Source: Chiloscyllium plagiosum
Lineage: Eukaryota
Direction: 5' to 3'
Assembly: GCF_004010195.1 (NCBI RefSeq)
Contig: NC_057743.1
Coordinates: forward strand, 7,610,352-7,674,351
Length of the DNA: 64,000 nucleotides
In this document: positions 6,089-60,613 of the stretch, one piece after another
Numbering within the stretch: the first letter of the stretch is position 1
Layout of the letters: each line of letters begins with the position of its first letter
Translations under genes and position numbers: made by a program
Notes under the pieces: generated by a model
Database searches by the model: none
What the model was told of the DNA's origin: nothing
The model's input: the letters and a program-made list of their open reading frames with translations, nothing else

Positions 6089-6679
6089 GGTGAAAGTGAG
6101 GGCTGCAGGTGCTGGAGATTAGAGTTGAGAGTATGGTGCTGGAAAAGCACAGCATTAGGGCGTTTGCCTGAAACGTTGGCTCTCCTGTTCCAAGGATGCT
6201 GCCTGACCTGCTGTGCTTCTCCAGCACCACACTCCATATCCTCCACCACTAACGTGCAGTGTGCAGTATCTACAATGTGCACTGTAGAAATTCCCCAAAG
6301 CTCCTTCGACAGCACTTTCTAAATGCATGACCACTATATTTAGAAGCTTCGGGCAAAAGCCCTTCATCATTCCTGTAGAAGAGCTTTTGCCCGAAATGTC
6401 GATTTTCCTGCTCCTCAGATGCTGCCTGACCTGCTGTGTTTTTCCAGCATCACTCTAATCTGGACTCTAATTTCCAGAAGAAGGGCTTCCTGAAGAAGGG
6501 CTTCCTGAAGAAGGGCTTATGCCCGAAACGTCGATTCTCCTGTTCCCTGGATGCTGCCTGACCTGCTGCGCTTTTCCAGCAACACATTTTCAGCTCTGAT
6601 CTCCAGCATCTGCAGACCTCACTTTCTCCTCTAATTTCCAGTATCTGCAGTACTCACTTTTGCCTACTATATTTAGAAG
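6089..6679. mobile_element. Cluster of three short Penelope-derived terminal-repeat insertions (one nested) within an older LINE 3' fragment
   Basis: Repeated gatgctgcctgacctgctg..ttttccagc core. TSD actatatttagaag at 6333-6346 and 6666-6679; nested TSD ctctaatttccag at 6465-6477 and 6629-6641. Confidence 0.75.
6503..6534 (+). ncRNA. Minimal type I hammerhead ribozyme motif
   Basis: UC-CUGAAGA-A-GGGC(UUAU)GCCC-GAAA-CG-UC-GA: conserved core, 4-bp stem II, GUC triplet, very short stem I. Confidence 0.65.
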
Positions 6680-6983
6680 GACAGGCAGAGCAGATACATG
6701 GAGAAAGCACCTCCTCTGCCATCCTGATTTGGAAATGTATCACCATTCCTTCAGTGTCATTGGGTCAAAATCCGGGAATTCCTTCTCTAACAACATTGTG
6801 GATCTAACTGTGGCCCATGGACTGCAGTGATTCAAAAGAGCAGCTCACCACCACATTCTCAAGGGCATGTAGGGATGAGAAATGGACAGTTGGGGACATC
6901 TTTGAGATATTTAAAGTGATAAAAGCATTTTATAGAGAAAGTTCAAAGACCGATTTCTTCCTGTGAGGTAATCATAGCATCAC

Positions 6984-7357
6984 AAACATATAAATTAGAA
7001 GGAGCAGGCCATTCTGCCCATCTAACCTGCTTTTATATTTGAACAGATCATGGATGATCTGACTGTGATCTCAATTTTACTTTCCTGTCTACCACCCGCC
7101 CCTCCCAAATCTTTTACTCCCTTGCCAATAACAAGGATAGTCAGCAAGTCTGGCAGCATCTGTGCAGAAAAACATATAAATTAGAAGGAGCAGGCCATTC
7201 TGCCCATCTAACCTGCTTTTATATTTGAACAGATCATGGATGATCTGACTGTGATCTCAATTTGACTTTCCTGTCTACCACCCGCCCCCTCCCAAATCTT
7301 TTACTCCCTTGCCAATAAGAAGGATAGTCAGCAAGTCTGGCAGCATCTGTGCAGAAA
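6984..7357. repeat. Tandem duplication of a ~186-bp unit
   Basis: aaacatataaattagaaggagcaggcc...tgtgcagaaa starts at 6984 and again at 7170; about 2 mismatches. Confidence 0.9.
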
Positions 7358-7902
7358 AAGCAGAATCATGTTGAAACAGTGACTCTGCTTTCTCTCCACA
7401 GATGCTGCCAAGCCTGTTACGTTTCTCCAGCAATTTCTGTTTTTGTTTCAGATTTCCAGCCCCTGCACTTCTTTGCTTCTTGTCAAGGATAGTCAACATG
7501 GCTTTATCAGGGGTTGATATGTCTAACAAATTTGATTGAACATTTTGAGAATGTGACTAGATGTGCAAAGGGTAAAGCAGTGATGTCGCCTATATGGACT
7601 TCAGTAAGACATTTAACAAGGTCTTGCATAGCAAAACTGGTTAAGAAGCTAAGCGTCTAAAGATTCAGGGGAATTGGCAAATTGAATCCAAAATTAACTA
7701 GTGGCACGAAGCAGATGGTTGAAAGATTTTGTAACTGGAAGTCTGAATCCAGAGATGTACTAGGTTCAGTGCTGACTCCCTTGCTGTTTGTAGTCGAACT
7801 TATTTTTATGATCTAGATATGAACAGAGGACGTATAATCAGTAAGGTATCAGATGACATGTAAACAGAGAGGAGGAAAGCTTTAACATAAAGGACAATAC
7901 AG

Positions 7903-9835
7903 TGTTATGGAATAGACCATGCTCCCTCAAAATATTTTAAAATGTTAGCCTGGTCCCTAAATTTTTCTTATTTTAAAAGTAAATGTAAAGTTCTGTGTTC
8001 CAGATGCAACTTGACTGGTCAAACTACTTGATGTTAAGCAAAACGCAATTTGTTCAAACACTATGGTGAAATATAACAAAAGCAAGAAGAAATTAGAATA
8101 ACTTAACTCTATTGGAAAACTTAACAGAGCAATAGACATAGTAACAATTACTAAGTTACTTTCCAATATAGTAACATTCCATAAACACACCAATTGGCAA
8201 AAAGGCAAATTCAGAAATCAAATATTCTCACAATCAACCGCTCAATAAGAAGAGAAACCCCAGCTTCCAGCTGCAACTGAGAGAGGGAAAATATAGTTTC
8301 TACTTCCTCAAGACTCCAGCAGCTTTTGCTGAATCTAAAAGCTAAAGAAAACAGTATTTATGAATACTTGGAAAACCATAGTTTGATTAAAAATAGTCAG
8401 CATGACTTTGTGAAGGGCAGGTCATGCCTCACAAACCTGACTGAATTCTTTCAGGATGTGACAAAACACGTTGATGAAGCTAGAGCAGTGGATGTGGTGT
8501 GCATAGATTTTAGCAAGGTATTTCATAAGGTTTCCTAATGGTAGACTCATTCAAAAATTAAGGAGGCATGGGATACAGAGAAACCTGTCTGTCTGGATAC
8601 AGAACTGGCTGGCCTATTGAAGACAGAGGGTTGTGGTAGATGGAAAATATTCAGCCTCGAGCTCAGTGACCAGTGGTGTTCTTCAAGGATTGGATCTGGG
8701 ACCTCTGTTCTTTGTGATTTTTATAAATGACTTGGATAAGGAAGTGAAAGGGTGGGTTAGTAAGGTTGCCGATGACACAAAGGTTGGTGGAGTTGTGGAG
8801 AGTGTGGAGGACTGTTGTAAATTGCAAATTGACATTGACAGAATGCAGAGCTGAGCTGAGAAGTGGCAGATGGAGTTCAACCTGGAAAAATGTGAAGTCA
8901 TACACTTTGGAAGATCAAATTTGAATGCAGAATACAGGGTTAAAGGCAGGATTCTTGGCAATGTGGAGGAACAGAGGGATCTTGGGGTCCATGTCAATAG
9001 ATGCCTCAAAGGTGCCACCCAGGTTGATAGGGTTGTTAAGAAGGCATGTGGTGTCTTAGCTTTCATTAGCAAGGGTATTGAGTTTAAGAGCTGCAAGATT
9101 ATGCTGCAGTTCTATAGTCTTGGTTAGACCACAGTTGGAATATTGTGTTCAGTTCTAGTTGCCTCATTACAGGAAAGATATGGAAGCTTTAGAGAGGGTG
9201 CAGAAGAGGGTGCAGACCAGGATGCTGCTTGGAATGGAGGGCATGTCTTAGGAAGAAAAGTTGAGGGAGCTATGGCTTTTCTCATTGGAGAGAAGAAAGA
9301 TATGAGGTAACTTGATACAGGTGTACAAGATGTTGGGAGACATAGATAGAGTGGATAGCCAGAGACTCTTTCCCTTGGCAGAAATGTCTATCATGAAGGG
9401 GCAATTTTAAGGTAATTGGAGGAAGGTTTAGGGGAGATATCAGAAGTAGGTTCTTTACTCAGAGAGTTGTGGGTGCGTGGTATGCACTGCCAGCAATGGT
9501 AGTAGAGTCAGAGACATTAGGGCAACTCTTGGATAAGCATATGGAAGTTAGTACAATGAAGGGTATGTGGGTTAGTCTGATCTTAGAAAGGATAAAAGAC
9601 CAGCACAACATCAAGGGTTGAAGGGCCTGTACTATTCTATGTTCTTAAAACACCAGAAATCTTGGTCTGTCAGAGCTGGCCACACTCATCCAGGCTGCTG
9701 CTATTGTTCCAACTTTTAAAAAAAAGCCTCACACGCTATTTACGTTACCACAGACTACTTGGTACCTCTCATTCAATCTCTCTCTTAAAAGAAACCTGGA
9801 CAAAGTATACCTCTTAACGCCACAGCATCATCTCA
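7903..9835. mobile_element. Solo-LTR-like repeat interrupted by a CR1 and itself inserted in an older CR1 (about 7480-7900 and 9836-10620)
   Basis: Starts TGTTATGG and is homologous to the repeats at 44055-44700 and 56142-57478; CR1 RT homology resumes on both sides. Confidence 0.55.
8350..9645 (+). mobile_element. CR1 LINE, 5'-truncated
   Basis: SQHDFVKGRSCLTNLTEFF, FINDLD..ADDTKVGG, MEFNLEKCEVIHFG, EQRDLGVHV; tail aagggcctgtactattctatgttct. Confidence 0.9.
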
Positions 9836-11759
9836 ATGGATATGTTGAGATGGGTTGAACAATGACAAATGGAACTAAATCCATAAAAGTATAGGGTGAT
9901 GCATTTTGGAAAGACTAACAAGGCTAAGTACATGTTAAATGGTAGGACCCTGGGAGTACAGGGAATCAGATGGATCTTAGTGTGCATGTCCACAGATCCA
10001 TAAGGGTAGCAAGACAACATAGATAATGTGGTTAAGGAGGCATATGAGCTACTTGCCTTTTCAGTCAAGGCATTGAATATGAGCTAATGAGCAAGGAGGC
10101 TATGATGGATCTGTATATAACATTAGTTTGGCTTCAGCTGGAGTACTGTGTGCACTTCTAATCACTGCGTTACAGAAAGGATATAATTCCACTAGAGAGG
10201 GTGCAGAGGAGATTCACCAGTATGTTGCCTGAGCTGGAGTGATTCAGCCTTGGAGACGAGATTGGCTGGGATTATTTTCCTTTGAGCAGAGAAGACTGAG
10301 GGGGTCTGATTGTGGTGTACTGAGTTATGAGCGGCATAGATAGGGACAAATATCTCCTTTTAGTAGAAGGGTTAATGGGTTAACAGTTTTAAAGTGAGGA
10401 GCAGGAAAATTAGAGGGGATTTAAGGAATTAGTTTCACACAGAGGGTGGTGAGAATCTTGAGGTCACTGCCTAATAGTGTGGCAGAGGCAGGAGCTCTGA
10501 AGACATTTAATAAATACTTGAACCTCTACAGCATACAAGGCCAAATGCTGAATGGGATTAGAATAAATAGATGCTTATGTCCTGCACAGACACAAAAGGC
10601 CATTTTTTCTGTGCTGTAAAAATTCTAAGCATTATCCCATTCTTGAAATGTAAGTGAGGCCATACAACAGGAGTGAAAACAACAAACCCCCCTTTCACCC
10701 ACAGGACAGGGGAAATTTAGAATCTTATTCTCACAAATGACCCTAGATACTGGCAGAATTGAATCTTTTAAGACTGAGATGAAAAGGTTTTCATTCAATA
10801 AGGGTATCACAAAGGATATGGATCAAAAGTTGGTAAATGACCTTGATTTGCAGATCCACCGTGGATAGTGGAACAGGCTCGAAGCTCCAAAAGCCTCTTT
10901 CTGTACATCTTTATCCTTTGCATACTTCAACTGCAACATTCGTTCACGAATGCTAACCATACAAGTTTTTAGTCGCCTTATGCACAGATTAATCACACTG
11001 TAAAAATCTTTAAAAAGGACTTTGACAGAGCTACAAATGCATTATTTTGTGGACGACGTTCGTGCAGTGCGCAAGCAACGCCGCCAGTTCCCTATCCTTT
11101 GTTATTGTAATTGTCAATTTTGCTTCCGCTGTGAAGGGTTACACCCGAGACGTCAACTTCTCTAGCTCCTGGTGCTGCCTAGCTTGCTGTTTTCTTCCAG
11201 CCTCCTACTTGTCTATCCCTTTATATTTGGCCAGTTACAAATCCAATGGAAATCGAGCTGGAAGAGCGGAAGCTTATCTGTCAACTCGGCAGATTCAAAA
11301 ATTTTACATCTCCTGCTGGCATCTTTATTCCCCCACCACTGTTTCAATTTTCTTGCATTTCCTTACATTGTATTCTCTTCTGTTTTGCATTCAGTGAGGT
11401 CAGCCACTCTTCATCAGGGCCACATTTTTGTTTCTTTATCAATTTTCACAAAACCGTTCGTCATTTCATGCCTCTTACCCGATCACAAACCTTCTCTTTT
11501 GTTCATACCACATCCCTCCCTTCCACCTGCTTGAAACGTTTAACATTTCCATTATTTTTCAGGTCATACACGACTTAAAACTTCAACTTTTTTCGCACGG
11601 CATGGAACCCAAATGACACGGAATTCCCAATATTTTCGCGCGTTATTTTGTTGCAAATCATCCAACACCAGCACAAAGGGAAGAAACAATCAGCAAGCCC
11701 TTTACTGTATTCAGTTGTCCCTGCGTGTGTGTATTTGATAGTCAACAATGTCACCAAGC

Positions 11760-13560: not shown

Positions 13561-13686
13561 GTAAAAACAATGACTGCAGATGATGGAAACCAGATTCTGG
13601 ATTAGTGGTACTGGAGAGCACAGCAGTTCAGGCAGCATCCAAGGAGCAGTAAAATCGACATTTCGGGCAACAGCCCTTCATCAGGA
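13561..13686 (-). mobile_element. Short Penelope-derived terminal repeat with hammerhead motif
   Basis: TSD atttttcaag (13551-13560 and 13687-13696). The minus strand reads UUC-CUGAUGA-A-GGGC(UGUU)GCCC-GAAA-UG-UC-GA. A near-identical partial copy lies at 13399-13492. Confidence 0.7.
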
Positions 13687-14050
13687 ATTTTTCAAGCCAA
13701 TTCTCTTGAGGTGAAAGGACCACATTGTCATTTCTTTAAAAATAGCTACAGAATAATTAAAAAAAACATAAAGTTACTGTTGTCTAATCTGCCACATGGC
13801 TGCTCTTTTATTAAAGAGGGAGAAATAACTGGTGGTGATTTAACTTGAGGGTCACCACATATCAGATGAGAGAAAAGGTTGAGAAGGAGAGTCCCTGATC
13901 CAGGAATTAAGCCCACACTGTTGATATCTCTTTGCATTGCAAACCAGCCATCCAGCCAATTGAACTCACCAACCCCCACAAAATGATTACAGGAAAACAA
14001 GAATAGTGTTTATTATATTTTACGGTAACTGCTTGTTTTATCTTGGATAG

Positions 14051-14177
14051 ATCCCACGTCAAAGATGTCGCTTATGTTTGTACAAAGATGGGACAGAAGT
14101 TCATGCTGACAATTTCTCGTGTCTGGAAGATAACTGTAAGCTTATCTTTCTGGAGCAGGGACAGCAGTGGAATGGAG
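14051..14177 (+). CDS. DFFB: DFFB coding exon 2
   Basis: IPRQRCRLCLYKDGTEVHADNFSCLEDNCKLIFLEQGQQWNG (CIDE-N LYxDGTE motif); ag|..G|gtaagt; 127 nt. Confidence 0.95.
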
Positions 14178-15361
14178 GTAAGTCCAGATTCCCATGTGGA
14201 CTGGACAGATTTTGAGAGGAGAGGGAACAGATTTTATTTGGGAAACCTGGGATTCCTGGTTTCTCGTTGACTTTCTTCAAGTTGGTTCCCCCTCTGGAAG
14301 TCAGCCAGATTGACAGGCTTGATACCCTGTGGAGTCGGGCAAAGGTTCAAAGGAGATGCAGCCCAGGAATAGCAAAGCTGCACATTATTGGGGGGGGGGG
14401 GGGGGGTGCAACAGAAGTACAGAACTGCAGTCACTCATACTCAAAAGATTGGGAAGCAAATAAATGTGGTGGATTGGAGGTTGCACTCTTGCTTTTCTTG
14501 GCTGACAAGCTGTTCTGTAAAGGTGCCCATCCTTTTCACGAAGGAGTCCTTGTCTCCCTTTAGTTGGCCAGTACATGCTAAGTAACCTCTTGGGAGTGTT
14601 CCCTACTCTCCAGATCCATCCCAGCTCCATCAAAACTGGAAGTTGGGTTTGGGATTTTAAAAAATTAACATTTTATCCAATCCGGAAAGTGCCATTTGTC
14701 TACAAGTCTTTTGCAACTGCTTTCATACAGTCATAAGGGCACAGGAGAAGGTCATTCAACCCATCAAAGCCATGATAGCTCTCTGCTTAGCAATCCATCA
14801 TGTCTTATTTTGTTACACTGTCCCTGCAGCCTTCAAATTTATTTCCCTTAAGTGCCCATTCAATTTTCTTTTGGAATCATTTCTCCCCATGCTCACAAGC
14901 AGTGGTTTATTCGTTCCACATCGAGTAGTTTCACTTGTGAAAAACCTTAAATCTGTGTAACCTAGTCCTTGTACCATCTAAATGGGAGCAGTTTTCTGGG
15001 AGATCTGTTGCAAATATACACTTTTAGTTGGTTGCTCACACAGAGCTGATGCTTATCCCTACATTTGAGGAGTACACTGTTGATGGGCACTGGGTCAAGA
15101 AGACTCAGTGTCACCAAATTAGGAGTATTTTGTGTGGTGGAGGATTTGGGGATGGATTACTTCATGTGCCAAAACAACATGCTAGACTATGTGGAATGCA
15201 GTTTGCAATATTGAAGGCTTGCTGATGAGATAGCCTATTGTGTAAGCAAAACATTGAATCTGAATAACAATGTTTCACTGTAGCTTATAATAATTTAAGA
15301 TCATAATTCCAATTCAGATTGATTTTAAAACTAAAGACTCATATCTCTGTCTCATTTACAG

Positions 15362-15547
15362 AAATTTGCTACTGTTTGAATAAAATATTTCATGACCAAA
15401 ATAATGAAGAACTAATTATGATTGCAAGGCAAATGTTATCTGATGAAACAGAACCCAGGAGAAAGATGCTGCTGCAGTACATTGTTCAAAACACTGCTGG
15501 AAATATAACAGCTGAAAATCGTAAGGATGACCAGGAGTGGTTTGAAG
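15362..15547 (+). CDS. DFFB: DFFB coding exon 3
   Basis: EICYCLNKIFHDQNNEELIMIARQMLSDETEPRRKMLL...AENRKDDQEWFE(G); 186 nt, phases match neighbouring exons. Confidence 0.93.
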
Positions 15548-16330
15548 GTGATGTGCTGCTGATGTTGATAGAAATATCAGACCGAATAACCTTGGTTATT
15601 TAGAAATAACATGCAAAATATACCAATGGTAAATTCATGCTCAAATGAAACAAGAAATTCTCATTCAGCCCATTGATAGGATTTCTTTCACAAATCATGC
15701 ACAATTTTCTCAGGCATATATCATAATCCCAACATCATCATTCTCCCTTCCCTTTGCCACACACCTTCTATCTTTTCCTGATGGTGCTTACTGCATGTCT
15801 GTGTGGATGGAACTCTTTGACTGAGTAAGGTGTCACCTTTATGTCTGTCTTCAATTTCTACACATAACCTTCCATCAAGTGAGCTGAGATGTGCTATACC
15901 ACTTGAAGAAGTCTTTGTTCCTCTGTCAAAGAAACAGGCACAACATTACATTTAAGACTTGGTTATTGAACACATTTGCAGCAGTGTGATTTAGACAGAC
16001 TCCCTCCTAAGCAGCCTAACATTTACAATGCTGCTTCACTAGAGGATGGAGAGTTAATGAGGGAAAAAGAGACACAGTAGTTGGAAATAAGGCAACATTT
16101 TGGCACAGCTGTATCAGATTTATTGCAGAAAATGTAACTTGGCATTATAGGTGACCTTGGGTAATTATTAACATGCCTGCAATAAATGTGCTACACAGTG
16201 ACCATTTTTTCCAAAAGTAGGCAATTAAATATCCTATTCAACCCCTTTGTGAGTTGATGATTCAGTTACACTAGTATATAACGGTTACTACAAATTACAA
16301 GCACTATCTATAGGATCTGTTATATTGCAG

Positions 16331-16410
16331 GTTTGGAATCGCGATTTAAAACCAAATCTGATTATATGAGATTCAGTTGTGGCAGAAGAATGAGAAATTA
16401 CCTGACAGAG
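16331..16410 (+). CDS. DFFB: DFFB coding exon 4
   Basis: GLESRFKTKSDYMRFSCGRRMRNYLTE; ttgcag|..GAG|gtatga; 80 nt. Confidence 0.96.
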
Positions 16411-17230
16411 GTATGAAATTGAAACAATTTATATTCTTTAATATAAAATTAACTATATGAAGCACAATGTTTTCTACCTTTTGAGATACTCTTTGTGCCT
16501 AATTATCACATTAACCTGATTAGGCTGTTTCCATCATGTTGTAATAACCAAAGATTGTAAATGCAATAATTTTAAAAGTCTACCCATTTCTATTTTACTC
16601 CTTCTACCATGATGTGGTAAGATTAAATTAGGCACTTTTCTCAAAGTGTACATTTGTAATAAAACAATGCCCTTCCTCTTACCAGAAGCCTAGGAACATT
16701 TGCATACTTGGAGTGGTGTTGGTTCCAAGCATTTTACTTTTAAAAGGAACACCTCCCAAGTCAGTTGCTTCAAGGTATGGCACTCTGTCAATTGGTTGTG
16801 TGGCCTGGATGTTGGATCCTCACGAGCTCATTCTTTATAGCATAATATTCTATTGTTCTGTGAAAATGCTTCCAACAACTATCATTTATCTCACACCTTT
16901 AACAAAAAAAATCCAATGATACTTTGCAGGAATTTTATCTAACAAAATTTCACACTGGAAATATTAGGGCAGGTGACCATAAGCTTTGTCAAACAGGTGG
17001 GTTTTATGGAGTGTCTTAACTGGAGAAGAGAAATTACAGAGCTTGGAACCTTGGCATCTGAAAGCACATGCTCCAATGGTGAAGTGATTCAAATAATTAC
17101 TTGCAAATATTCTCCTTCATATTTCCTCCCTTAATGCAAAATGTATACATCCACTGTGATATGGTAGCATCACCTAGCATATTGATTCAATTAGTAGAAA
17201 GACACTGTAACACATTGTTTCCATTCACAG

Positions 17231-17401
17231 GTTAAAAGCCATGCTGAAAATGTTGATAAAAAAGTGAAGGAAAAGTACTGTGCATTTGTAGCAAGAATAG
17301 AGAAACTGCTTCAACAAACTAAGTTCAATGGGTGTTACTTTGACAGGACAGCAAATGGTAATAGTCGTCTCTGCACTGATGAAGGATGGTTTACTTGTCA
17401 G
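17231..17401 (+). CDS. DFFB: DFFB coding exon 5
   Basis: VKSHAENV...FNGCYFDRTANGNSRLCTDEGWFTCQ; 171 nt; donor gtgagt. Confidence 0.96.
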
Positions 17402-18099
17402 GTGAGTTTAAGGTGATAGCTGAGCAAAATATAAGCTGAAACCTCAAGCCTGGGGGTTTTCATGTGTCATGACTGATGTATGCTAATTAATAGACATTAG
17501 TCTCTACTGGTCAATCAGTTCAACACTGTTTCAGAAGCAAAATATTGTAGATACTCAAGATGTGAAGTAAAAACAAGATGCTGGAAATATTGAACATGTC
17601 AGGCAGCATCTGTGGAGGGAGTAACAGAGCTAACAGTTCAAGCTGATAATCTTTAATCAGAATTGGGAAAAGTTACAAATGAAGTAGATTTTAAACAAGC
17701 CATAGCGTTGTCTCTCATTTAACAAAGAAGGAGAAATTCAATAGCTTTACAGAAGACAGCTGAGATTAAATGATGCACAACCAAAGGAACTGGCAAATAA
17801 AGAAAAAAAAAGTTGAGGTACTGTGGAGAAAGTGGAGAAACTCAGCATCTATAGAGAGAAACACAGTTAATGTTTGAAGTCCGGTGATCCTTTATCAGAA
17901 ATAGTGAGTGTCATTGTGGGTTGGTAGACGTTGGGTGCCAAAATATATTTCTGTGAAGAATCAAAATCATTGTGATGATATGAAATGCAGATAACAGCGA
18001 TGTAAAATCTGAATTATCAGAAGCTTCTCATTAGCTAATGACTTTGCTTCACCTTTCGTGTCACCAACTCTGTACTTGTCCGGCAAGGCTAAGTTACCA

Positions 18100-19836: not shown

Positions 19837-19889
19837 GTGAGTGGAGGTGTGCACTTTCAACCATCATTTCTGTATGTTTGGGAAACTGA

Positions 19890-26430: not shown

Positions 26431-26438
26431 ATGAGTGT

Positions 26439-32570: not shown

Positions 32571-32579
32571 TTTGTTTTC

Positions 32580-48170: not shown

Positions 48171-49307
48171 CACACATGCAGTGCAGAAACTTGCCAAAGG
48201 TCCTTCGTCAGCATCTCCCAAAAGCATGACCACTTCCATCTAGAAGGATAAGTGACAAAGTCTGTAGCCTTAAAACTTGTCCTTAAACATTTCGACAAAA
48301 TGTAATGCTGAATTATAAAAGACATTTGCTGCACACAGAATATAAATAGGGCAGGAAGGGATGCATCAGGCCACAAAAGGGGGAACCCAGGATGTGCAGA
48401 AGATAAAAACACCTGTTCTCAACAAGTGATAATAGGATGCTCTAAGGCAATTAAGAACATTTACCTCAACATCAATGAGTCTTTGTAAACAGGACACAGA
48501 GTGATAACATTCATGGCTGTTCACTTATGAAATTAATGACAGTGTTTGATTCTGACCTCAGAGTCTTGGTATCATCTTGTATGCATGTCAAAATCCGTGT
48601 AGTTAATGGTCAGGTCCTATCAATTATAATGGATTCTTATTACACTTGCAAGCTAGGCAGACAGAGGGAAAAACATTTTTCTGTTACAGTCCCTGATCTG
48701 GGAGTTCAAAGGACGAGAGAGAGAGAGATCATTTTAACACTGAGATTGCCGAAGCCAGTAGAAAATTAACTTTTCTTGTGGTCTGATTTGAATGCACATT
48801 TACTTGTTATGGATTGAATGTTTTGAATTCAATTGCATTTTGAGACTTTATGATGATTTTGAGTAGCCATCACTGATTATGAAATGCAAACTCTGTAAAA
48901 GGTAATATTGATGAAGCTTTAACTTACTTGCTGTTCTTACAGACTGTGACTGCCCCATTGTCAATTCAACTAGTCAGATCTTATGTCTTATTTGAATTTG
49001 AATCACAACCCTGAAAAGAAAGAATGTTTAATTTGAGACTAATAAATCATTTAAAATTCAACCTTACAGTTACATTTCAGTCTCAGGTACAGAATGATGC
49101 TGTTCTTAAGATAAAGAGCAGTAGTCTGCTCCTAACTTAAAAATTATTCTAAACCTAACATTGAAGAGATTCTGACACAATCTGTCAGGAAGCCATTTTA
49201 TGGTCAAAAGTTTGCACTCCTCTTTAAGAAGCCATTTGTAAAACAGTGATATCTGACATGCGAGCTGTGCGAGGTTACCTTATAATCTCTCCCACTTCAT
49301 TTCGACT

Positions 49308-49593
49308 GATACTACCAGCAGACAAAGGCAGAATGACGGTCATCCTGGACAAAGCAGACTACATCCAAAAAGCGCAACAACTACTTACAGATACCAACAC
49401 CAACCAAAAGAGGGAGTTTGACCCCACCCCACAGCTCACCAATAGGATAAACAACACACTGAGGAACCTACAAAACAAACGGACAGATAACCAGGTTTGA
49501 CCGACAAAGAATGAAACCTGAAAGCAACAACACCCCCAGATTCTATGGACTACCTAAAGTGCACAAACCAGACATCCCACTCAGACCCATAGT
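49308..49593 (+). mobile_element. Penelope-like RT N-terminal fragment ending at a 12-N gap (49594-49605)
   Basis: ILPADKGRMTVILDKADYIQKA and PRFYGLPKVHKPDIPLRPIV, hallmark Penelope RT motifs. Confidence 0.88.
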
Positions 49594-50384
49594 NNNNNNN
49601 NNNNNACCCTAGCAATACATCCTTCACCTTCTTTAATGCTGGTGCACATGATTTACCATGGCAACAACATTTAAAGTTGCATGTATGCTGAATACCTCCG
49701 ACTTGAACTCCTCATCACAGCTCGTAAGCTATCTGTTGTCTTTTTGTCAAATCTCCCATTTAACATGCAGTGTTGAATGAGTCAGAAATTCTTCCAGTTA
49801 TTGGTTGCAAAGAATTAGGATTTCATCTTTTGGCCATTTCATAAACCCTTGCCCATTATCTGTAGCTTCACTAGACTACCTGGTAACAGAATACACCATC
49901 CAAATTCAGCATATGCTTAGGTTATCGTGCCTAAAATTGCTCTCTAACATAAATAAATGAGCAATCTTGAAGAAGAGCAGAAATTGTAAAATCTTTGTTC
50001 CACCCAATACAGAAAATTTCACCGCATTAGTTTTTTAACTATTTACAATGAAAGAAAAATGCTAGAAAAACAGATAACGTGGTAGTTTTAATTATCCTAA
50101 TATAAGACTAGAAAATAATGTCTAAAGGAAAAGGGGTGGAGAGAATGTTTAAAACATTTACAAAGGTGGATAATTTCAAATGGCACCGGAAATGTTGGTG
50201 AGAATACACGCTCACTCCTGACACTTTTCCTGCAGCTAACTGGACAAAGGATGGACTTTAGTCCTTTCTGGACAGGAGGGTACACTTCAGAGAGTTGTTA
50301 ATCAATCAAATCGGCCAGTAGTTCTTTAGCTCAGAGGGTCCAGTGGGAACAGTGGTCACTACTGGAACTACACTGAGTACCACA

Positions 50385-50833
50385 CTAAACACTATATAGG
50401 ACAAACAGGAAGACAGCTAACGATCCACATCCATGAACACCAACTAGCCACGAAACGACACGACCAGCTATCCTTAGTAGCCACACACGCAGATGACAAG
50501 CAACATGAATTCGACTGGGACAACACTACTATTATAGGACAAGCCAAACAGAGAACAGCCAGGGAATTCCTAGAGGCATGGCACTCATCCACAGATTCAA
50601 TCAATAAGTACATCGACCTGGACCCAATATATCGACCACTGCAACGGACAGCTGGAACTGACAACCGGAAGCGGCAGATTGAAACCACTATAAATGCTGG
50701 AGGAAACATCACAGAAGCGCTTCACAGGAGGCTCCCAAGCACTGAGTATGTCACCTCGACAGGGGACGAAACGTCTGCAACACAAATTCCCAGCTCGGCG
50801 AACAGAACCACAACAATGAGCACCCGAGCTACA
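50385..50833 (+). mobile_element. Penelope-like GIY-YIG 3' end, same family as 26439-27080
   Basis: KHYIGQTGRQLTIHIHEH..; hammerhead-like motif at 50739-50778 with core change CUGAGUA and a GUC triplet. Confidence 0.88.
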
Positions 50834-51094
50834 AATCTTCACACAGACTTTGAACTGATACCTTTTTATGATAGGGACTTATCTCGCCCACAGGCACCTG
50901 ACTTTTCTTTCTTACGAATTATTGCCATTCCAATGTTGTCTGTCTAATTAAGAACATGTAGTGCTTTTGTAAAATTTTGTATAAAGTAAGCTTGCTTGAG
51001 ACAGGAGAGAGTAGCCTGCGAGGACTCTTAAAGGAAGAGCTGGTACCCTACTCAAGGTTTTGGAACCTTACTAACCTAGCTTATAGGTATCAGT

Positions 51095-51311
51095 TAGGAG
51101 AAAGTGAGGACAGCAGATGCTGGGGATCAGAGCTTAAAAATGTTTTGCTGGAAAAGCGCAGCAGGTCAGGCAGCATCAAAGGAGAAGGAGAGTTGACGTT
51201 TCGGGCATAAGCCCTTCATTCCTGAAGAAGGGCTTATGCCCAAAATGTCGATTCTCCTTCTCCTTTGATGCTGCCTGACCTGTTGCACTTTTCCAGCAAC
51301 ACATTTTTAAG
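51095..51311. mobile_element. Palindromic short Penelope-derived element
   Basis: TSD ttataggtatcagt at 51081-51094 and 51312-51325; two back-to-back hammerhead remnants at the centre. Confidence 0.78.
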
Positions 51312-52064
51312 TTATAGGTATCAGTGTTATGTTGTAACAGTGATACTATTGGCAAATAAAGGGGAAGACTAAAATTAAAATAAACTGTCTGTAAGAGGTT
51401 TTTTCATTCCAGACTACCAAAGAGTATGATCTCTGGGACGAACCAAGAGAGGCTTACAGGTCAAGTCCATTAGGGATTCCCTGGGCCGTCTCAAATCAGT
51501 ACTTTAACATAAGGGCAGGAGATACATGGGAATGCCATGGCCTGCAAGTTCTCCTCCAAGCCACTCAGCATCCTGACTTGTAAATATATCACTGTTCTTT
51601 CACTCTCACAGAGTAGAAATCCTGGAATTCCGTCCCTCGTGGTATTGTGGGTCTACCTATTGCACATGGGCTATTGCAATTGAAGAAGGCAGCTCACCAC
51701 TACCTTCCAAAGGGCAGTTAGGGACAGGCAAGTAAATGTTGGCCAGCTAGTGATGCCCATGTCCCAAATGCAAATGAGAACAAAAGGAAAAACAGCAGAG
51801 ATACCAATGCTTCAAGTCTGAAGTAAAAGCAGATTAAGCTGGAAAACATTCAGCAGATCAGGCAGCATCTGCTCAGAGAAAAAAGGAATTAACGTTTCAG
51901 GTGGATGATCTTCACCCACAAGTTGTCAAGTAATGAATATCTCTTAATCAATGTTCATGCTCATCTTGCACTTCTGTCAAGAGAATCATTTGTATATTTG
52001 TTTGACAAAGGACTTTTTGAATGTTGATAATTTGAGCTTGTAGATAACTATTTATTTTGTTCAG

Positions 52065-52220
52065 GTAGGAGAGCGTCTGGGCCGTTATGAGGTGGAAAAG
52101 CGCTGTGCAATTGAGAAGGAGGACTATGACCTGGCTAAACAGAAGAAACAGCAAATGGATGATTATAGGATGAAGGTTTATCAGCAACTTGAGCTACATA
52201 GCTTGCTGGACATGGGAATG
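52065..52220 (+). CDS. CEP104: CEP104 internal exon (exon 8 equivalent)
   Basis: VGERLGRYEVEKRCAIEKEDYDLAKQKKQQMDDYRMKVYQQLELHSLLDMGM; 156 nt; ttcag|..|gtcagt. Confidence 0.96.
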
Positions 52221-53545
52221 GTCAGTGTAGATTAGTGCTATGATCTTTTATATGAAAAATCTAATGTCTTTCAGGGAAGGGGATTTTCATCCTCGCCTGG
52301 TCTGGCCTGCATGTGACTCCAGACCCAGCAATCTGGTTGACTCCCAACTGCCAATTAGGGCTGAGCAATAAATGCTGGCTTAGTTAACGATGCCCACATT
52401 CAGTGAATGAATAAAAAATCACCTGCCTACCCTCCCTAAATAAACAGTGATTTGCCTCCGATGATGAGCCAGATGTGAGTCTCCAATTTGCTGTTGGAGA
52501 GAGTTTATTTTACATTTCACTGTAATAAAAATCACAAAGAAAATGGGTTCTGTTTAATATGTTCATGTAGCAATAGCCTGCTGGAGGTACCTTGCACCTG
52601 GGGCTGCATTGGAAATGAGCAATGTTGCTTGTTGCAATTTCCTTCTGGCCTTTTGATTGTGGAGCTCCAGTAATTGAATGTCAGCACTGCCTGTGACAAA
52701 GCTTAATCATTATTTTTAAATTTGGGAAACATACTATTCAAAAAGTACTCAACACCCATTTTTCCTCCTTCCCTGAATAGTCTTAATACATGTTGAGTGG
52801 ACAAAATTAACTTGTGCATCATCCATGTGGTAATATATCCTGACAATCCTACTCTGACTAAACTCAACACTTATCATTGTATAATTGTCAATAGATCACA
52901 CTGCATGATATTTGTAAGCTGGAGAATTGATTAATTGGGTTCAAGACTGTGAATTCAAGTTTATTCCAGAAGTTTAAGCATCTAGTTCAGGTCGACAGTG
53001 CAGTGCTGCATAATCTGTGGCCGTTCAAAGATTGCCTGTTACTATACATAAGAAAAGCATAGGAGTACTACATTGTGTTTTGGTCAATATTCATCCTTCC
53101 GCCACCATTACTGGGACTGATTTATTTGCTCAGTTCTTTTGATCTGTGCAAATTGGTTACTGTGTTTCCTAAGTGGCATGAGTAACTATTGTTCAAACTT
53201 GGCTCAATTGACCTTAAAGGTACTTGGGGCATCCTGAGATTTTAAGTAAATGCTATATAAATGCAAGTTGTTCTGTTCTTTTCTGGGTGCACACACATGG
53301 TATGTCATATCTGCTGTCCATGTTAACTGAGTGCAGATTAGGAACTGAGCCCAGAAAATTGGAATAGTTGATATTCCAAGTTATTGCCTTCTAAATTGGA
53401 AGCTAAATCTGTTGAGATTAGAGAAGGCAACTTCAAGTTGTGTTATGTAATATTTAAAGACGTGTAGTTTAGCAAGTAATATATCAGTGACTGTATGTTA
53501 AATATAATTCTTTGCTTAAAAAGGCTGACGATTTTTGCTCTCCAG

Positions 53546-53770
53546 ATCCGAAAGTTTCCTGAGATTCCTCTTGAACCAGTGGATCATCTTAATAGAATTC
53601 AACAGCAGCAAATGGTATTGGGACCTAAATCTGCACCAACTGTGAAAACCCATCTGCAGGAGTCATCTGAAGAAAGCCTCAGGCCATATCAGACCCCTGG
53701 AAAGCCACAATGGTCTCCCATATCGCAGCAGTTTTCTTCTACTCCACCTGCTCGATTACCTTCTCGAAGG
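53546..53770 (+). CDS. CEP104: CEP104 internal exon (exon 9 equivalent, P/S/Q-rich linker)
   Basis: IRKFPEIPLEP...PARLPSRR; tccag| acceptor, AGG|gtacgc donor; 225 nt, phase 0/0. Weak sequence conservation but correct position. Confidence 0.85.
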
Positions 53771-55094
53771 GTACGCATTTTCCTATAACAGCTTGGTCAC
53801 TCACTTAGGAAGGAAGGATTTAGACTAATGATAAAGATCGATGTACTGGCTCATTCTAGAAAGGAGAATCTGTACATGAGTAGAACTTCCCATTTGTACA
53901 AAAGCCATCGCCCTATATTTGGATACTAATAATATTGAAAAAGATTAATATTGAACAAGACAAGAAATATTACAATTCGATTTTAATGATAGTGGGTTTT
54001 TTCTCGACATTTTGACTTGGAAGTCAGTTGAATCAAGGAAGGGCTCAGTTTCTTCGTCTGTTGTTATTTCTGTCATCCACTATGACATGTGCAAATCAAA
54101 TGTCACAATGTAATGTCAATTGATCAATTCCGTACTTTAGTATATGTAAATGACAAAGGCTGCTTCGCAATTTTTAGTTTTTTTTTGATGAGGAGGTGAA
54201 AAGGGCCTTTGAAAATGTATTTAATAAAGGGCTACATAACAAATTAAAACACGGGGGTAACAGAGGAAATAGCAGAATGGATACCAAATTAGCTAACAGG
54301 TTTAAAAAATGGACAGGGTATTCATACACTCCAAAACCATTTCTGTTTTTAATATATTGAAGACTTGGAGTAATAGGATACAATTTTGCAACTTGCAGAT
54401 GACATGAAACTTGCTGTAGTAGTGTACGGTGATAAAAGTATGAAACTTCAAGATAATTTAGGTTGGTGGAATGGGTGAATACATTACAAATGAAATTTAA
54501 CACAGGAAAAAAATTGCCAGCTTACATCAAAACAGTGGGAAATGCGATCAACTGCTCTTTATGATACTATATTTTAAAGTGTGAGGAGGTCTGTAGGTCT
54601 AAGTGGGGGAAGTTTCTGGCAGTTATGAAGGTGATCAAGAAGATCTCACCTTCTGAACCTCTCACTTTGAGGTGTGGTGACCTTCAGGTTAAATTCAGAC
54701 CAGTCATGTTTCTTTCATGAAGAAGCACTTCATGGTTTTCTGCGACCATGCCAACTTTAGCTTCACTCGTTTACAGTAAACACCCAGCTCTGTCTGTTTT
54801 CTAACACTTAAGTTTTAATTTTTAAGCAGCTTTGAACTGAGTGTCTATTGACTGTTAACTGGTGTATTGATGACTAGTTGGAAAATTCCTCCATCTGCAG
54901 AAGCATTAACACTTTTAAAGCAGTCTCTCAAAAGATGTAGCAGAAATGCAGCAAGATATGTGGTAATCTTTGAAGCTTCACCTTTACTGCTGTGTCACAT
55001 TACATGGCCCAATCATTAGTTTGAGGAGGCAAGCCGATAACCTACTTTCTGCCTTCTCCTAGCAATGCTTTAACTGGCTCTTTGCAGTCAGCAT

Positions 55095-57950
55095 GACTTT
55101 GTGCATGGGAAATCATGTCTCTCAAATTTGATTGAGTTTTTTTGAAGAATTGACCAAGAAGTTAAATGAGGCCATTACAGTAGACATTATTTACATGAAT
55201 TTTAACAAGGCCTTCGACGATATGCCACATGATCGACTGGTTGGTTAAGTTAGATCACATGGGATCCAGTGAGGGCTAGCTAGTTGGACACAAAATTGGC
55301 TTGATGGTAGGACAGATGATGGTGGTGGTGGAGGGTTTTTTTTAAAACTGAAGGCCTGTGACTACACAGTTCAGTGCTGGATCCACTATTGTTAGTCATT
55401 TATTTGGATGAGTTTATAGGAGACATGGATAGTAAGTTTGGGAATGACACCAAAATTGGTATTGTAGTGGACAGTGAAAGAGGTTATCCAAGAATACAAC
55501 AGAGTTTTTATCAACTGGGCCAGGAATGGCAGATGGAGGTTAAAACATAAATGCAAGGTTAATGAGTTTTGAAAAAATTTGTAGCTCAGGTTGTGATTCT
55601 GGGTGTAGGCTTGCTCACTGAGCTGCAAGGTTCATTTTCAGATGTTTTGTCACCATACTAGGTAGTGTCAGCAGTGAGCCTGGGATCCCAAGGAAACCCA
55701 AATGCACACATAAAAAGAGGGCTATGCCACCAGTGCTTCATCCAGAGGCTCACTGATGATTTTACTTAGGATGGTGACGAAGTGTCTGAAAATGAACCTT
55801 GTAGCTCAGCAAGCAAACCGACATCCAGAATAAATGCAACGTGTTACATTTTGGTAAGACAAACTAGAGCAGGGCATGCACAGTAAATGGTAGGGCCATG
55901 GGGAGTTGTTGATCAGAGAGACCTGGAGTACAGTTACATAGTTCCTTGAAAGTGGCATTATAGCTAGACAGGGTATAAGGCATTTGGCATGCTTGCTTTC
56001 ATCGGTCAGAGCATTGAGTACAGGAGTTGGGACAAAATGTTCCAGCTTTACAGTACATTGTTAAAGCCACATTTGGATTACTGCATGCAATTATGATTGC
56101 CCTGCTATAAGAAGGATATGATTGAACTGGATAGATTGCAGTGTAATGGACCAGACCAAACCACCTAAAAATACATTAAGAAGGAAACACGGACCCTAAC
56201 TTTTACTTGTTTAAAATACAAACACCAGGTGTTGCATTCCAGTTGCAATTCAATTGGCCAAACTATTTGATGTCAAGTGTTATGAAGATGTGGGTGTACT
56301 CTACCTTTAGGAAAGTTAAAAACTAGCAGAACTACCTGACAGCACCAAGTGTTCTAAACAAGATACAATGTAACCTTTTAGTCTAGCAGTTAGTGTAGCT
56401 GGTTGCCTGGAGACAAAAACAAATTTGAATTAGGCCAATCAGTTTAAATTATATCCCAAAAAATACCAAGCTCCAAGCAAGTTTGAATTTAGTATATTGA
56501 CAGTATTAAAAAACAATGATACAATCCGATGCTTTGGGGGTATAAGACCAGGAAAACGTGAACAGTTGAGAACTGCTAAGCTATCAGCATGTACAATCTG
56601 TCCAAAACACAGCTCTCTTAAAGGTACCTTTATCGGTTAATGACCTGTGAAACAGAAATCCCAAAGAAGAAAAAAGTCTACAGCGGAAGATACAAAGAGA
56701 AAATTTGATAGCTGTCTGGTTTTGAATTCTGAATTTTTGGTCAATCTTACTCAGGGGTTTTATTGGATGAGTATTATAGAAGGGAAAGTAAAAGATAGGT
56801 TAGAGGAAGGAGTTGTAAATAGTTGTTAGTTAATTATTCTCTGTTATACTTTAAGAAATGAAGTTGTTAATTTTTACTTTAAATAGTTCTTGGCCTCTCT
56901 AATTTTTACAGATTATTGCACGGAATAAATCATTTCTGTCTTGCTGGTTTAAATTATTGGAGTGTTTATCCCATGTCGTAACATAAGCAAAACATTTTTT
57001 TTCATACACTATAGTTAAGGTACAACAAAAGAAATAAGAAATTGAAAAAAACTTAACTGTGTTGGAAAACGTAACAAAACAACAGCTTATTAATTAAAGG
57101 TTCCAATATAGTAACATTCCCTAAACACACGCTTGCCAAAGGCAAATTCAGAAGAACAAATTCAAAAGAACATGCAACTCCAGCAACAGGAAAAGCATCA
57201 AGATACCTCTGAGTAGTAGGTTGAGACGTACTGAGGCTTCCACCCAGCTTCAAGATCCAGCAAATGCTGCAACTGAAACTAAAAAAATCTTGGTTCTGAG
57301 GGAGCTTGCCCATTTATTCAGGCTGTTTCTATTGTCCCAGCATTTTAGGAAAAAAACCCAAGGCCTCACCAGTTGTATAATTTTTATTGGCTTTCAATAG
57401 AGAGCTCATCTCCTCTGCTTTAAAACCTCTTCAAAAACAAGGACAAAATACACCTTGTAAAGCCGTAGTAAGGTCACAGAAGACTTACAAGGATGTTACT
57501 GAAACTAGAGAGCTTGAGTTAAGGGGAGGCTGGGTAGGCTGGGACTTTGTCTCCTGGAGTGTAGAAGGCTGAGGGGTGACCTTATAAAGATTTATAAAAT
57601 CATGAGGGGCATAGATATGGTGAATAGCCAAGGTCTTTTCCCCAGAGTAGAGGAGTTCAAAACTAGAGGGCATAGGTTTCAGGTGAGGGGAAAAAGATTT
57701 CAAAGGGACCTGAGGGGAAATATTTTTATGCAGAGGGTGGCACGTATATGGAATGAGCTGCCAGAGGAAGTGGTAGAGGTGGATACAGTTAGAACATTTA
57801 AGAGTATTTGACCGTTATGTGGATTGAAAAGGTTTAGAGGGATATGGGCCAAATGCAGGTAAATGAGAATAGTTCAGTTTAGGAAACCTGGTTGGCATAG
57901 ATGAGTTGGGCTGAAGGGCTTGTTTTCATGCTGTGTACCTCTGTGATGCT
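55095..57950 (+). mobile_element. CR1 LINE interrupted by a palindromic Penelope-derived insert (55557-55829) and nested LTR-like repeats (56142-57478)
   Basis: CR1 RT and C-terminal peptides (KTRGHRFQVRGKRF..QRVARIWNELPEEVVE) resume after each insertion; TSD ataaatgcaa flanks the Penelope insert. Confidence 0.8.
56278..56983. mobile_element. Solo LTR nested inside another solo-LTR-like repeat
   Basis: Termini TGTTATGA...TCGTAACA; flanks caag/taag (4-bp TSD, one mismatch). Confidence 0.65.
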
Positions 57951-57997
57951 GTGCCTGTGAGATGTGAAAGAATTAGAGCTTGATGTTCTGCTCTCCA

Positions 57998-58139
57998 NNN
58001 NNNNNNNNNNNNNNNNNNNNNNNNNNNNNNNNNNNNNNNNNNNNNNNNNNNNNNNNNNNNNNNNNNNNNNNNNNNNNNNNNNNNNNNNNNNNNNNNNNNN
58101 NNNNNNNNNNNNNNNNNNNNNNNNNNNNNNNNNNNNNNN
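57998..58139. other. Assembly gap (142 N)
   Basis: Run of N. Confidence 0.98.
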
Positions 58140-58745
58140 CCTTCTGCCAACATATTTTAAACAGTATGACTGACATAGAGAAGTATTCTGCTGATTCAAG
58201 GCACAATAAGTTACTACGGGGGTCAACCCTGGTGTTCCCTGTAACTATTATAGTTTTTGTGTTTTGGTAAGTTGAGGTTCAATATACTGTGTCACCACTC
58301 AGTCCTTAATTCTGTTATAGCTGCTTATTCCAAGGAAATACTTCTTCCCCTCTGCAGATTACTTTATTTAGCTAAAATAGGAAAATTGCAATATTGATTC
58401 TCTGGCACCAAAGTAATACTGAAAGCAGTTAACTTAAATATATGTTCTGTTTAATTTTCAATTCTGTCATGTTAGAGAAGTTGGACTCAAATATATGGAT
58501 TGGAACATCTGCATGGGAGAACGTGTCACAAACAAAATCTAAAGCTGTGTTTTTCATGAAGTGATTGGCAAATCTCTTTAGACAATCCGCTTTATGTTTG
58601 AAACATTTTTTCTGCCAAATTAGGAATAGTGACATGTGAGCTCTGAGTGCTAAGTCCAATCCAGGATTCTGGGGCCAAATAATTAACCTGTCCCATACAT
58701 ATCCAATAAGGAAGGAGAACTGTATCCATGACCATGTTCTGTAAC

Positions 58746-58844
58746 GTGTCTGTGTGTGTGTGTCTGTGTGTATGTGCATGGGTCTGTGTGCGTGTATGTG
58801 TCTGAGTGTGTTTGTGGGGTGTGTGTTGTGTGTGTGTGTGTCTG
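58746..58844. repeat. Imperfect (TG)n microsatellite
   Basis: gtgtctgtgtgtgtgtgtctgtgtgtatgtg... Confidence 0.9.
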
Positions 58845-58911
58845 TAAGCAGGAAACCTGTCTGAAGCTGATTGCCACAATTCTAACTTTTTTCTTTGTGG
58901 TCCTCCCTCAG

Positions 58912-59133
58912 GTCGATACCAGCTCACTTCCCTATGATGAGAGGCCACTCCCAGCTCAACGCAAACCTGCAGAATTATTTGGCATACCACAGTTGGAGGT
59001 TAATGAGTCAACTGCAGTAAACCCGGACTCTTCACCTACACCAAGAAGTGGAATCACAGGAGAGCCAGAGCCACTGACTGAAAAAGCTTTCAGAGAGGCT
59101 AGTTTTGCCATTGACTTGTTTGGCGAGGCTCTG
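58912..59133 (+). CDS. CEP104: CEP104 internal exon (exon 10 equivalent)
   Basis: VDTSSLPYDERPLPAQRK...GEPEPLTEKAFREASFAIDLFGEAL; ctcag|..CTG|gtaagc; 222 nt. Confidence 0.96.
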
Positions 59134-60156
59134 GTAAGCATGGACAATTGAGCAATTCCTACTTGTTCAGCTTAGTTTTGCATATTGGCTATTATCTGCA
59201 ATTGATTTTAGACTTTGAGACTCATTCCGTTAGGAAATTCCTTTCCTGAGAGGAAACATTACCTCTCAGGAGTCTCAAGTGAGCATCAATTTTCAATTAA
59301 TCTTCATTGCTAGTAATACGCAGTAAAAAATATGTTTTCTTCTATCCATAATCTGAGCAGTTGTGCATCGTGTTAGACAAGAATAGATGGCATCAATATA
59401 GCACTTCTAAAATTTAGAGGAAAGTGATATGGTGGGTGTTCAAATGGCCAGAATAAGAGCAGCAGAGAGGTTGGGGGAGGACTTATATGCCATTGTGATA
59501 CTTCAGGGTTGATTGACAGAGAGATGAAAGATCAGTTTAATTTGGAGGTTTTAGGGTTCTCACCTATGTAACCAAAAACAATGCAATGTGGTTGTTTTAA
59601 AAGTATAAATCAATATGTCATCTCTTCATTAAAAGATATTATAGTACATTTGAAGCAGAAATTGGTGAAACACAGTCCTGAATCTCAATAGAGAATAATT
59701 AACCCAAAAATAATCTTGGATAAATATCTAGATGTAAATGAGACTAATCACATGTGCATCAAGACTATTTAAATAAAATAGTTTAATCATGCTAATTAAA
59801 TGTCATAAACGTGTAGCTGAAATGTGATCTGGATAGTTAAGGAAAGCTTGAGATGAATCTCACGTGTCAAATTGGAAGAAAAAAAATTGATATTTTTCAA
59901 GTGAAGAGAGGACTATGATGAGGTGGGGTACTGTTTCGAAACAAATATTCAGAAATATATGCTTTCTTCGATTGAAGGCAAAAGATTAATAAGTGAGCAA
60001 TATACTGATGTCATAGTGCTACTCGCAGAATCAGAAGAGGCCCTAAAAATATTGTTTCATATAAAATCTAGAAATTTACAAGATAATTGCACATGAAGAC
60101 CAAAAAAGCCACAAAACTGGAATAATTAGAAGCAATGCTAGGGTTGATCCCCTGGT

Positions 60157-60613
60157 GGAGAAAGTGAGGTCTGCAGATGCTGGAGATCAAAGTTGAAACT
60201 TTATTGCTGGAACAGCACAGCAGGTCAGGCAGCATCCAGGGAACAGGAGATTCGACGTTTCGGGCACAGGCCCTTCTTCAGGAATGAGCAGAGAGTGTTC
60301 AGCAGGAGAAGATAAAAGGTAGGGAGGAGGGACTTGGAGGAGGGGAGTTGGAAATGTGATAGGTGGAAAGAGGTCAAGGTGAGGGTGATAGGTCGGAGTA
60401 GGGTGGAGGCGGAGAGGTCAAGAAGAAGACTGCAGGTCAGGAAGGCGGTGCCGGGCTGGAAGGATCCGGCTGAGACAAGGTGGGGGGAGGGGGGATGAAG
60501 AAACTGGTGAAGTCCAAGTTCATCCCCTGCGGTTGGAGGGTTCCCAGTCGGAAGATAAGACGCTCCTCCTCCGACCGTCGGGTTGTTGTGGTTTGGCGGT
60601 GGATGAGTCCAAT
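60157..60613 (-). mobile_element. 5'-truncated Neptune-type Penelope-like element with 15-bp TSD
   Basis: RRSEEERLIFRLGTLQPQGMN (GIY-YIG C-terminus); TSD ggttgatcccctggt at 60142-60156 and 60614-60628. Confidence 0.88.
60250..60285 (-). ncRNA. Minimal hammerhead ribozyme motif (best-preserved copy)
   Basis: AUUC-CUGAAGA-A-GGGC(CUGU)GCCC-GAAA-CG-UC-GAAU: 4-bp stem I, 4-bp stem II, palindromic ACGU in place of stem III, GUC site. Confidence 0.75.

Follow-up and report, generated by a model that had tools for sequence, protein, structure and literature searches.

Minimal hammerhead ribozyme motifs in the terminal repeats of two Penelope-like element families of a carpet shark

Minimal type I hammerhead ribozymes were described in the Penelope-like elements (PLEs) of animals by Cervera and De la Pena in 2014 (PMC4209133), with a solo Schistosoma motif that was not cleaved and dimers that were cleaved weakly. 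The role of these hammerheads is still described as open (PMC8557442). Rotifer PLEs carry an inverted pseudo-long terminal repeat (pLTR), a tail, a target duplication and an initiator-like pLTR sequence (Arkhipova et al. 2013, PMC3846280); in Drosophila Penelope, an initiator forms part of an internal promoter (PMC2377424). In the Poseidon element PAc of Anolis carolinensis, reverse transcription starts internally at two sites that define a tail, and the hammerhead cuts only with protein present (Frangieh et al. 2024, PMC11167929). Here we analysed 64 kb of contig NC_057743.1 of the carpet shark Chiloscyllium plagiosum; this whole stretch is called the window, and its own numbering is used throughout. 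The window very probably contains minimal type I hammerheads in the 3' terminal repeats of two PLE families, here called family A and family B, present as target-duplicated, decaying and likely inert copies. The arrangement is of a known kind, already described in other animals (PMC4209133). Its occurrence here extends a known PLE feature to a carpet shark, at a copy number that seems far above the published vertebrate counts.

The window was scanned with a strict minimal-hammerhead descriptor comprising the core, the extra base, a helix II of at least 4 bp with a G-C closing pair, GAAA, two bases and UH. This search, proposed as a check in the preliminary description of this DNA, gave five matches (Table 1) and none in 200 dinucleotide shuffles, and the loose pattern CTGANGA..GAAA occurred 20 times against 7.6 ± 2.6 in 100 shuffles. 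All four places at which CUGANGA-A-stem II-GAAA-NN-UH had been reported for the first family (6503, 13656, 31633 and 60250) are strict matches, with the loops UUAU, UGUU and CUGU and the GAGC/GCUC stem at 31633 as described, and the decay of the copies near 6372 and 51220 was traced to changes of A6 and G12, respectively. A second, unrelated family had been said to carry the same core with different stems at 26476 and 50739. The core is intact at 26476; at 50739 G8 is replaced, so that the C3-G8 pair is gone and the core is broken. The palindromic helix III holds for three of the five strict matches (6505, 26479 and 60254), in which ACGU is unbroken and would give a 4-bp helix III in a dimer; the palindrome position is a U-G wobble at 13656 and a C-A mismatch at 31633, where helix III is broken. 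The number of intact copies had therefore been overstated, and two of the six copies presented as motif-bearing, 31633 (helix III) and 50739 (core), are likely dead. Helix I is longest at 60250 (4 bp), followed by 26476 (3 bp); the other strict matches have 2 bp, and in most family A reads a U-U mismatch (position 60251) interrupts the helix after 2 bp.

Table 1 Strict hammerhead matches and element copies in the window
Feature	Positions	Strand	Family	Remarks
Strict match	6505-6532	+	A	
Strict match	13657-13684	-	A	
Strict match	31635-31662	-	A	GAGC/GCUC stem II
Strict match	60254-60281	-	A	
Strict match	26479-26512	-	B	Second family
Young 5'-truncated PLE insertion	60157-60613	-	A	457 bp: endonuclease C-terminus, 3' untranslated region, hammerhead, pLTR end with tail
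Best-preserved hammerhead	60250-60285	-	A	4-bp helix I, full core, 4-bp helix II, ACGU palindrome
Stub	6478-6628	+	A	Core intact at 6505-6532, helix I 2 bp, 13-nt target duplication
Stub from first bases of helix I	13561-13688	-	A	Core intact, helix III U-G, 10-nt target duplication
Head-to-head insertion	31567-31779	.	A	12-nt target duplication; minus arm: GAGC/GCUC motif, broken helix III
Head-to-head insertion	51095-51311	.	A	14-nt target duplication; plus arm G12 changed; minus arm without 5' core
Decayed stub	6343-6462	+	A	A6 changed, one-sided stem II change, short inverted arm
Decayed head-to-head stub	6088-6235	.	A	Without 5' core
Longer decayed family-A-type fragment	42040-43051 (start approximate)	+	A	Cys-rich linker remnant, GIY-YIG-like remnants, pLTR
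5'-truncated PLE, endonuclease domain	26439-27080	-	B	12-nt target duplication; hammerhead 26476-26515 intact
3' fragment	50376-50845	+	B	Hammerhead about 50740-50779, G8 changed
Two decayed pLTR ends, head-to-head	55574-55849	.	B	Second subfamily

Covariation was assessed on nine family A copies, whose rows are related and in part not homologous in helix I. Stem II is paired in 88.9% of cells, and the only two-sided change in it is that of 31633, at a pair that is G-C in six copies, A-U in one and unpaired in two. At 6372 only the 5' side of the pair has changed in this way, and the inverted arm of that copy retains GGGC, which shows that change at this pair arises by decay too. Under neutral decay at the observed divergence, the probability of at least one double change is 0.07-0.14. 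Across all ten pairs, the observed count of pairs with two-sided changes was reached in 74 of 500 shuffles that ignore relatedness; only 7 of 500 equalled or exceeded the percentage paired, and only 7 the covariation score, again with relatedness ignored and with helix I rows that are not homologous. Thus the letters of the compensatory change from GGGC/GCCC to GAGC/GCUC are present as had been claimed, but in a single copy and without significance. Core positions differ in 2 of 83 cells and downstream positions in 33 of 387 (p=0.064), in copies partly picked by their intact core. Among the family A read differences that were listed (40 of 139), none falls at the core or stem II, and those inside the motif affect two bases of loop II and one of helix I.

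The structure is better evidenced between the families, where unrelated stems surround one core and pairing is kept. This comparison bears on the simplest alternative, that the motif is a chance match in an ordinary repeat and that no ribozyme exists even in the source elements. Such a view could draw on the absence of any Rfam match at the gathering score across the window and of any hammerhead family at E<=10 within 60100-60400, on fold energies that are unremarkable for five of six copies, and on covariation within family A that does not reach significance; the minimum-energy fold of 60250 does contain helices I and II. Nevertheless, in two families of unrelated sequence the full core, its extra base ahead of helix II, G10.1-C11.1 and the palindrome occupy one position in the element, in line with the published consensus, and we consider a chance origin highly improbable.

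In both families the motif lies 3' of endonuclease remnants. The window contains no full-length element, so the 5' pLTR is not seen. For family A, the sequence upstream of 60250 and 42977 is endonuclease C-terminal sequence with 33-67% identity to unnamed proteins, and none of four fragments was matched in Pfam. No RT (reverse transcriptase) belonging to family A was recovered. A decayed Cys-rich stretch near 42350-42490 suggests the Neptune clade, a label that we use tentatively. The pLTR of the fragment at 42040-43051 lacks the 5' half of the hammerhead. The insertion at 60157-60613 is flanked by a 15-nt target duplication (60142-60156 and 60614-60628); in its hammerhead the predicted cut falls between 60254 and 60253, and helix I begins with 60285, at which the 5' boundaries of short family A copies cluster. 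Ahead of the motif at 6505, a 15-nt segment from the 5' end of the ribozyme itself is repeated (6478-6504), and the plus arm of 31567-31779 (31676) begins close to the cut site. Relatives of family A with different stem II sequences, more decayed than the copies above, were observed at 11133-11203, 17577-17643, 25578-25700, 36950-36986, 51834-51916, 7142-7433 and 1837-1932; these older relatives represent at least one further subfamily. A direct duplication of 126 nt, recent in origin (6984-7109 and 7170-7295, 97%), adjoins inverted remnants of one of them.

For family B, the copy at 26439-27080 carries on its 5' side an inverted pLTR end (27005-27080) that starts a few bases from the cut site, and the stop codon of its open reading frame (ORF) sits inside loop II. 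Further copies of the second family B subfamily lie at 28193-28539 (+) and 36674-36793 (-). The frame 26499-27026 had 13 protein matches, nine of them from carpet sharks (Chiloscyllium, Hemiscyllium, Stegostoma and Rhincodon) at 58-91% identity. The best match, P0001, a relative 84-91% identical to family B, matches RVT_1 (E=3e-6) and by inspection has no linker cysteines; GIY-YIG was matched weakly in P0007 (E=0.008), and the look-alikes of P0001 are clusters with a reverse transcriptase (RT) and GIY-YIG. The window's own family B fragments had no relevant Pfam match. Judged on P0001, family B is of the Penelope/Poseidon type, with an RT followed by a C-terminal GIY-YIG domain and no Cys-rich linker. 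Endonuclease remnants upstream of the motif in both families, together with shark RT-endonuclease matches of up to 91%, support the earlier placement of the motifs on PLE termini. A family B RT fragment was also observed at 49306-49594 (+), some 800 nt ahead of the endonuclease fragment at 50376; it ends where the assembly has a gap. Three of the protein matches (P0004, P0008 and P0011) are shark isoforms of MAP3K7, NT5DC1 and CUEDC2 annotated with family B endonuclease sequence, and these are either exonised pieces or gene-model errors.

The motifs share with the published minimal hammerheads the type I topology, the full core, the extra base before helix II and G10.1-C11.1, as well as the absence of a loop III, the palindromic 15.2/16.2 positions and a helix I of 2-4 bp (PMC4209133). 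The geometry of family A equals that of the Acropora Neptune row of that study and the geometry of family B that of its Clonorchis rows. In both data sets most copies are solo copies on truncated elements, with pairs on opposite strands. The dimer-cleaving PLE hammerheads of Lunse, Weinberg and Breaker (cited in PMC6765202) likewise have a very short palindromic helix III and likely cleave as dimers. The clustering of 5' ends at helix I, seen in family A, goes unmentioned in the accessible part of PMC4209133, and no shark appears among the rows seen of its supplement. A literature search for Penelope, shark and hammerhead ribozyme returned no relevant report, although the data of Lunse and colleagues or of a retrozyme preprint may include sharks; a record of PLE hammerheads from this shark may thus be unpublished. 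Pattern scans for further shark copies returned 2 viral, 11 metagenome and 15 prokaryote loci, none with the stem II or the downstream sequence of the family.

Insertions of both families take the forms known from canonical endonuclease-bearing PLEs, namely 5' truncation, an inverted pLTR, an optional tail and a target duplication (PMC3846280; Craig et al. 2021, PMC8557442). Of the 13 spans tested, 6 are flanked by target duplications, which are 10-15 nt long here and 8-10 nt in the rotifer examples compared; several insertions are head-to-head, and very short stubs dominate here. Reads and contigs were examined over 60000-60750 in contig runs X1 and X5 and RNA run X21 (4 of 24 runs tried). 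Summed contig depth over the family A motif was 4.9 and 4.5 million, where the unique flank had 12-13 and 21. Family A copies thus appear to be of the order of 10^5, a rough figure because depth is not a copy number; the largest counts in PMC4209133 are about 4,000 (coelacanth) and about 9,000 (Xenopus). The family B profile gave seven matches, and its abundance is gauged from the window alone. Of the proposal that two ribozyme-bearing lineages are very abundant in this genome, two PLE lineages and the abundance of family A are borne out, and family B is seen in the window alone.

Just upstream of 60285, depth drops 3.9-fold in X1, 3.8-fold in X5 and 4.5-fold in X21. The best-supported loose ends lie at 60156-60158, 60204-60205, 60193, 60285 and 60266, besides 1110 weaker places. 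Those at 60266 are the 60285 boundary clipped at loop II, since their loose letters are the rest of the motif. The two 3' ends, 48 nt apart (60157 and 60205), define an optional 48-nt tail. Among these best-supported ends there is no pile at the predicted cut (60254/60253). About four fifths of family A copies begin at the first base of helix I and not at the cut, with stubs outnumbering longer copies about 4:1. Because these copies start at helix I and not at the cut, their templates were uncut RNA. PAc is alike in several respects: its optional tail, which follows the hammerhead, is delimited by a pair of 3' ends, its copies derive mainly from uncut RNA, and no RNA-seq read stops at the cut (PMC11167929). 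It differs in that its ORF starts inside the ribozyme, whereas the window shows no ORF start and the family B ORF stops in loop II, and in a tail of 30-40 nt compared with 48 nt in family A (PMC11167929).

These ends suggest a course for the propagation of family A. The element RNA would start at the first base of helix I, within an initiator-like hexamer of which 60285 is the A; the chance of such a hexamer is 1.3-1.7% per position. Reverse transcription would be primed at the nicked target, begin inside the RNA, 81 or 129 nt from its start, and run off the 5' end, leaving short stubs that hold the whole ribozyme from uncut templates. Jumps at the 5' end of the RNA could give rise to the 15-nt repeats at 6478-6504 and to the inversions, and longer copies such as 60157-60613 could come from read-through or tandem transcripts. 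By analogy with known systems, the ribozyme of the source element would cut after GUC or GUU only as a dimer, in which two ACGU palindromes form a 4-bp helix III, or with the element protein. Solo copies would have no partner in cis, be nearly inactive and decay once inserted; the inverted arms at 27005 and 31676 perhaps derive from cut templates.

The 5' boundary could instead mark a stall or template switch of the reverse transcriptase at the folded ribozyme rather than an RNA start. The inversion joints and the 15-nt repeats at 6478-6504 do fall in or at the motif, as a stall would have it. The ribozyme fold is weak, however (-7.7 kcal/mol, z -0.19), helix I would already have been unwound from its 3' side before the enzyme met 60285, and the boundary coincides with the initiator-like base. 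We therefore regard a stall as unlikely and prefer an RNA start at helix I.

Several observations weigh against the preferred account of RNA-start stubs from uncut templates that decay as inert copies. The transcription start is deduced from DNA ends and a short motif alone. The inverted arms at 27005 and 31676 begin near the cut, which fits occasional use of cut templates. No piles of RNA molecule ends were found at the cut or at 60285 in X21, a polyA single-cell library of which about 2% was read. The window holds neither a full-length element nor a tandem pair, and the comparison of core with downstream positions leans slightly towards conservation. In favour of the account, 93% of X21 reads continue into unlike flanks and both mate directions occur, the pattern expected for passengers in host transcripts.

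A further possibility is that the 80-130-nt units form a self-standing non-autonomous family, similar to short interspersed elements or to retrozymes, that is both transcribed and copied from the stubs themselves. Stubs are about fourfold in excess and have sharp ends, and both the proposed start site and the priming region lie on them. Moreover, a preprint on non-LTR retrozymes (bioRxiv 10.64898/2026.07.22.740005) describes tandem hammerhead retrozymes derived from pLTRs in one chondrichthyan; with the copies here these share non-coding, pLTR-derived units, a type I hammerhead and occurrence also as monomers. Non-LTR retrozymes are defined, however, by tandem units with full ribozymes, of which the window has none, and the repeats at 6503 span just 15 nt. 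The stub sequence of family A continues into endonuclease-coding DNA at 60250 and 42977, and no stub-specific variants could be shown. A self-standing family is on this evidence unlikely, and we continue to read the stubs as truncated PLE copies. A retrozyme array was rejected, as no tandem units each with a full hammerhead occur among the window repeats and profile matches.

The insertion at 60157-60613 varies between data sets. One X1 contig skips 60142-60613 (472 nt), with 15 letters that fit both sides, which is the empty site; one X5 contig passes from the flank into the element, which is the filled site at 60157-60613. The insertion is therefore polymorphic and young. It was also observed to differ from the family majority at many places and to have a better helix I (4 bp), and it may mark a young subfamily. 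With its perfect 36-nt motif (60250-60285), this insertion is a ready substrate for cleavage assays. A family of about 10^5 copies that has sharp ends and was recently active makes the use of cut and uncut templates countable, and the data favour uncut RNA.

We also considered where family B came from. Among the best 120 of 625 matches to P0001, the named non-shark proteins are from trematodes or cestodes, except one from a soft coral, and the shark rows are all from carpet sharks, with no other vertebrate group. Against schistosomes the shark rows have a median identity of 54%; the value is 52% for other trematodes, 47% for cestodes and the coral and 37% for one goby, and between schistosomes and other trematodes it is 53%. 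One eukaryote row without an organism name falls within the shark clade and is whale shark. The family B hammerhead (26476-26515) agrees with the second Clonorchis row of Fig. S3 of PMC4209133 at 33 of 40 positions, and at 22 of 29 outside the invariant core, as compared by eye. In a quick tree of 54 rows chosen from 199 proteins, the sharks adjoin the schistosome rows with support 87. In a careful tree of 20 named rows, from which unnamed rows, a mosquito row and six redundant or short rows were left out, the base is unresolved, with approximately unbiased test p values of 0.36 for a grouping with trematodes, 0.36 with flatworms and 0.31 with shark and goby on one side. No grouping is rejected, and the tree tests do not establish transfer. 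Flatworm annotations perhaps over-represent such proteins in this match set, and the comparison includes one teleost protein. That family B is a flatworm-type (Cercyon-like) element which crossed with its ribozyme between parasitic flatworms and a carpet shark ancestor is thus a tentative idea that we think more likely wrong than right. Literature searches for Penelope transfer involving sharks or trematodes found no report among the records listed; if true, this parasite-host transfer would be a further instance of transposons moving horizontally in cartilaginous fish.

The copies sit among exons of two host genes on the plus strand, a DFFB-like gene with CIDE-N and DFF40 exons (14051-17413) and a CEP104-like gene with exons at 58.9-59.1 kb. 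Exons near 41.7 and 52.1 kb also presumably belong to the CEP104-like gene. This location invites the question of whether the host has retained some solo copies that cut or regulate the pre-mRNA of either gene, and the slightly better preservation of the core than of downstream sequence would agree with it. Yet four of the five strict matches are antisense (minus) to both genes, and the fifth (6505) precedes the first exon found. All four sense copies between CEP104-like exons have broken cores, in numbers too small to speak of selection, and the best copy (60250) is missing in the data of another individual. Host co-option is hence very improbable, and we rejected it on the grounds of strand and polymorphism.

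Some further features of the window were observed. The DFFB-like (14051-17413) and CEP104-like (about 41700-59140) exons share the plus strand; in human, DFFB and CEP104 are head to head. A 303-nt inverted duplication (24734-25036 and 25300-25602, 99%, with a 263-nt spacer) has one arm ending in the GAAA of a decayed hammerhead of a third family (25578-25603), and the rest looks like non-repeat sequence; the structure may have arisen by a recent fold-back duplication or be an artefact of assembly. Many decayed RT fragments of the long interspersed element (LINE) type lie at 2206-4600, 8281-9618, 45100-46692, 55086-55523 and 57518-57808, with an RVT_1 match for 46242-46661.

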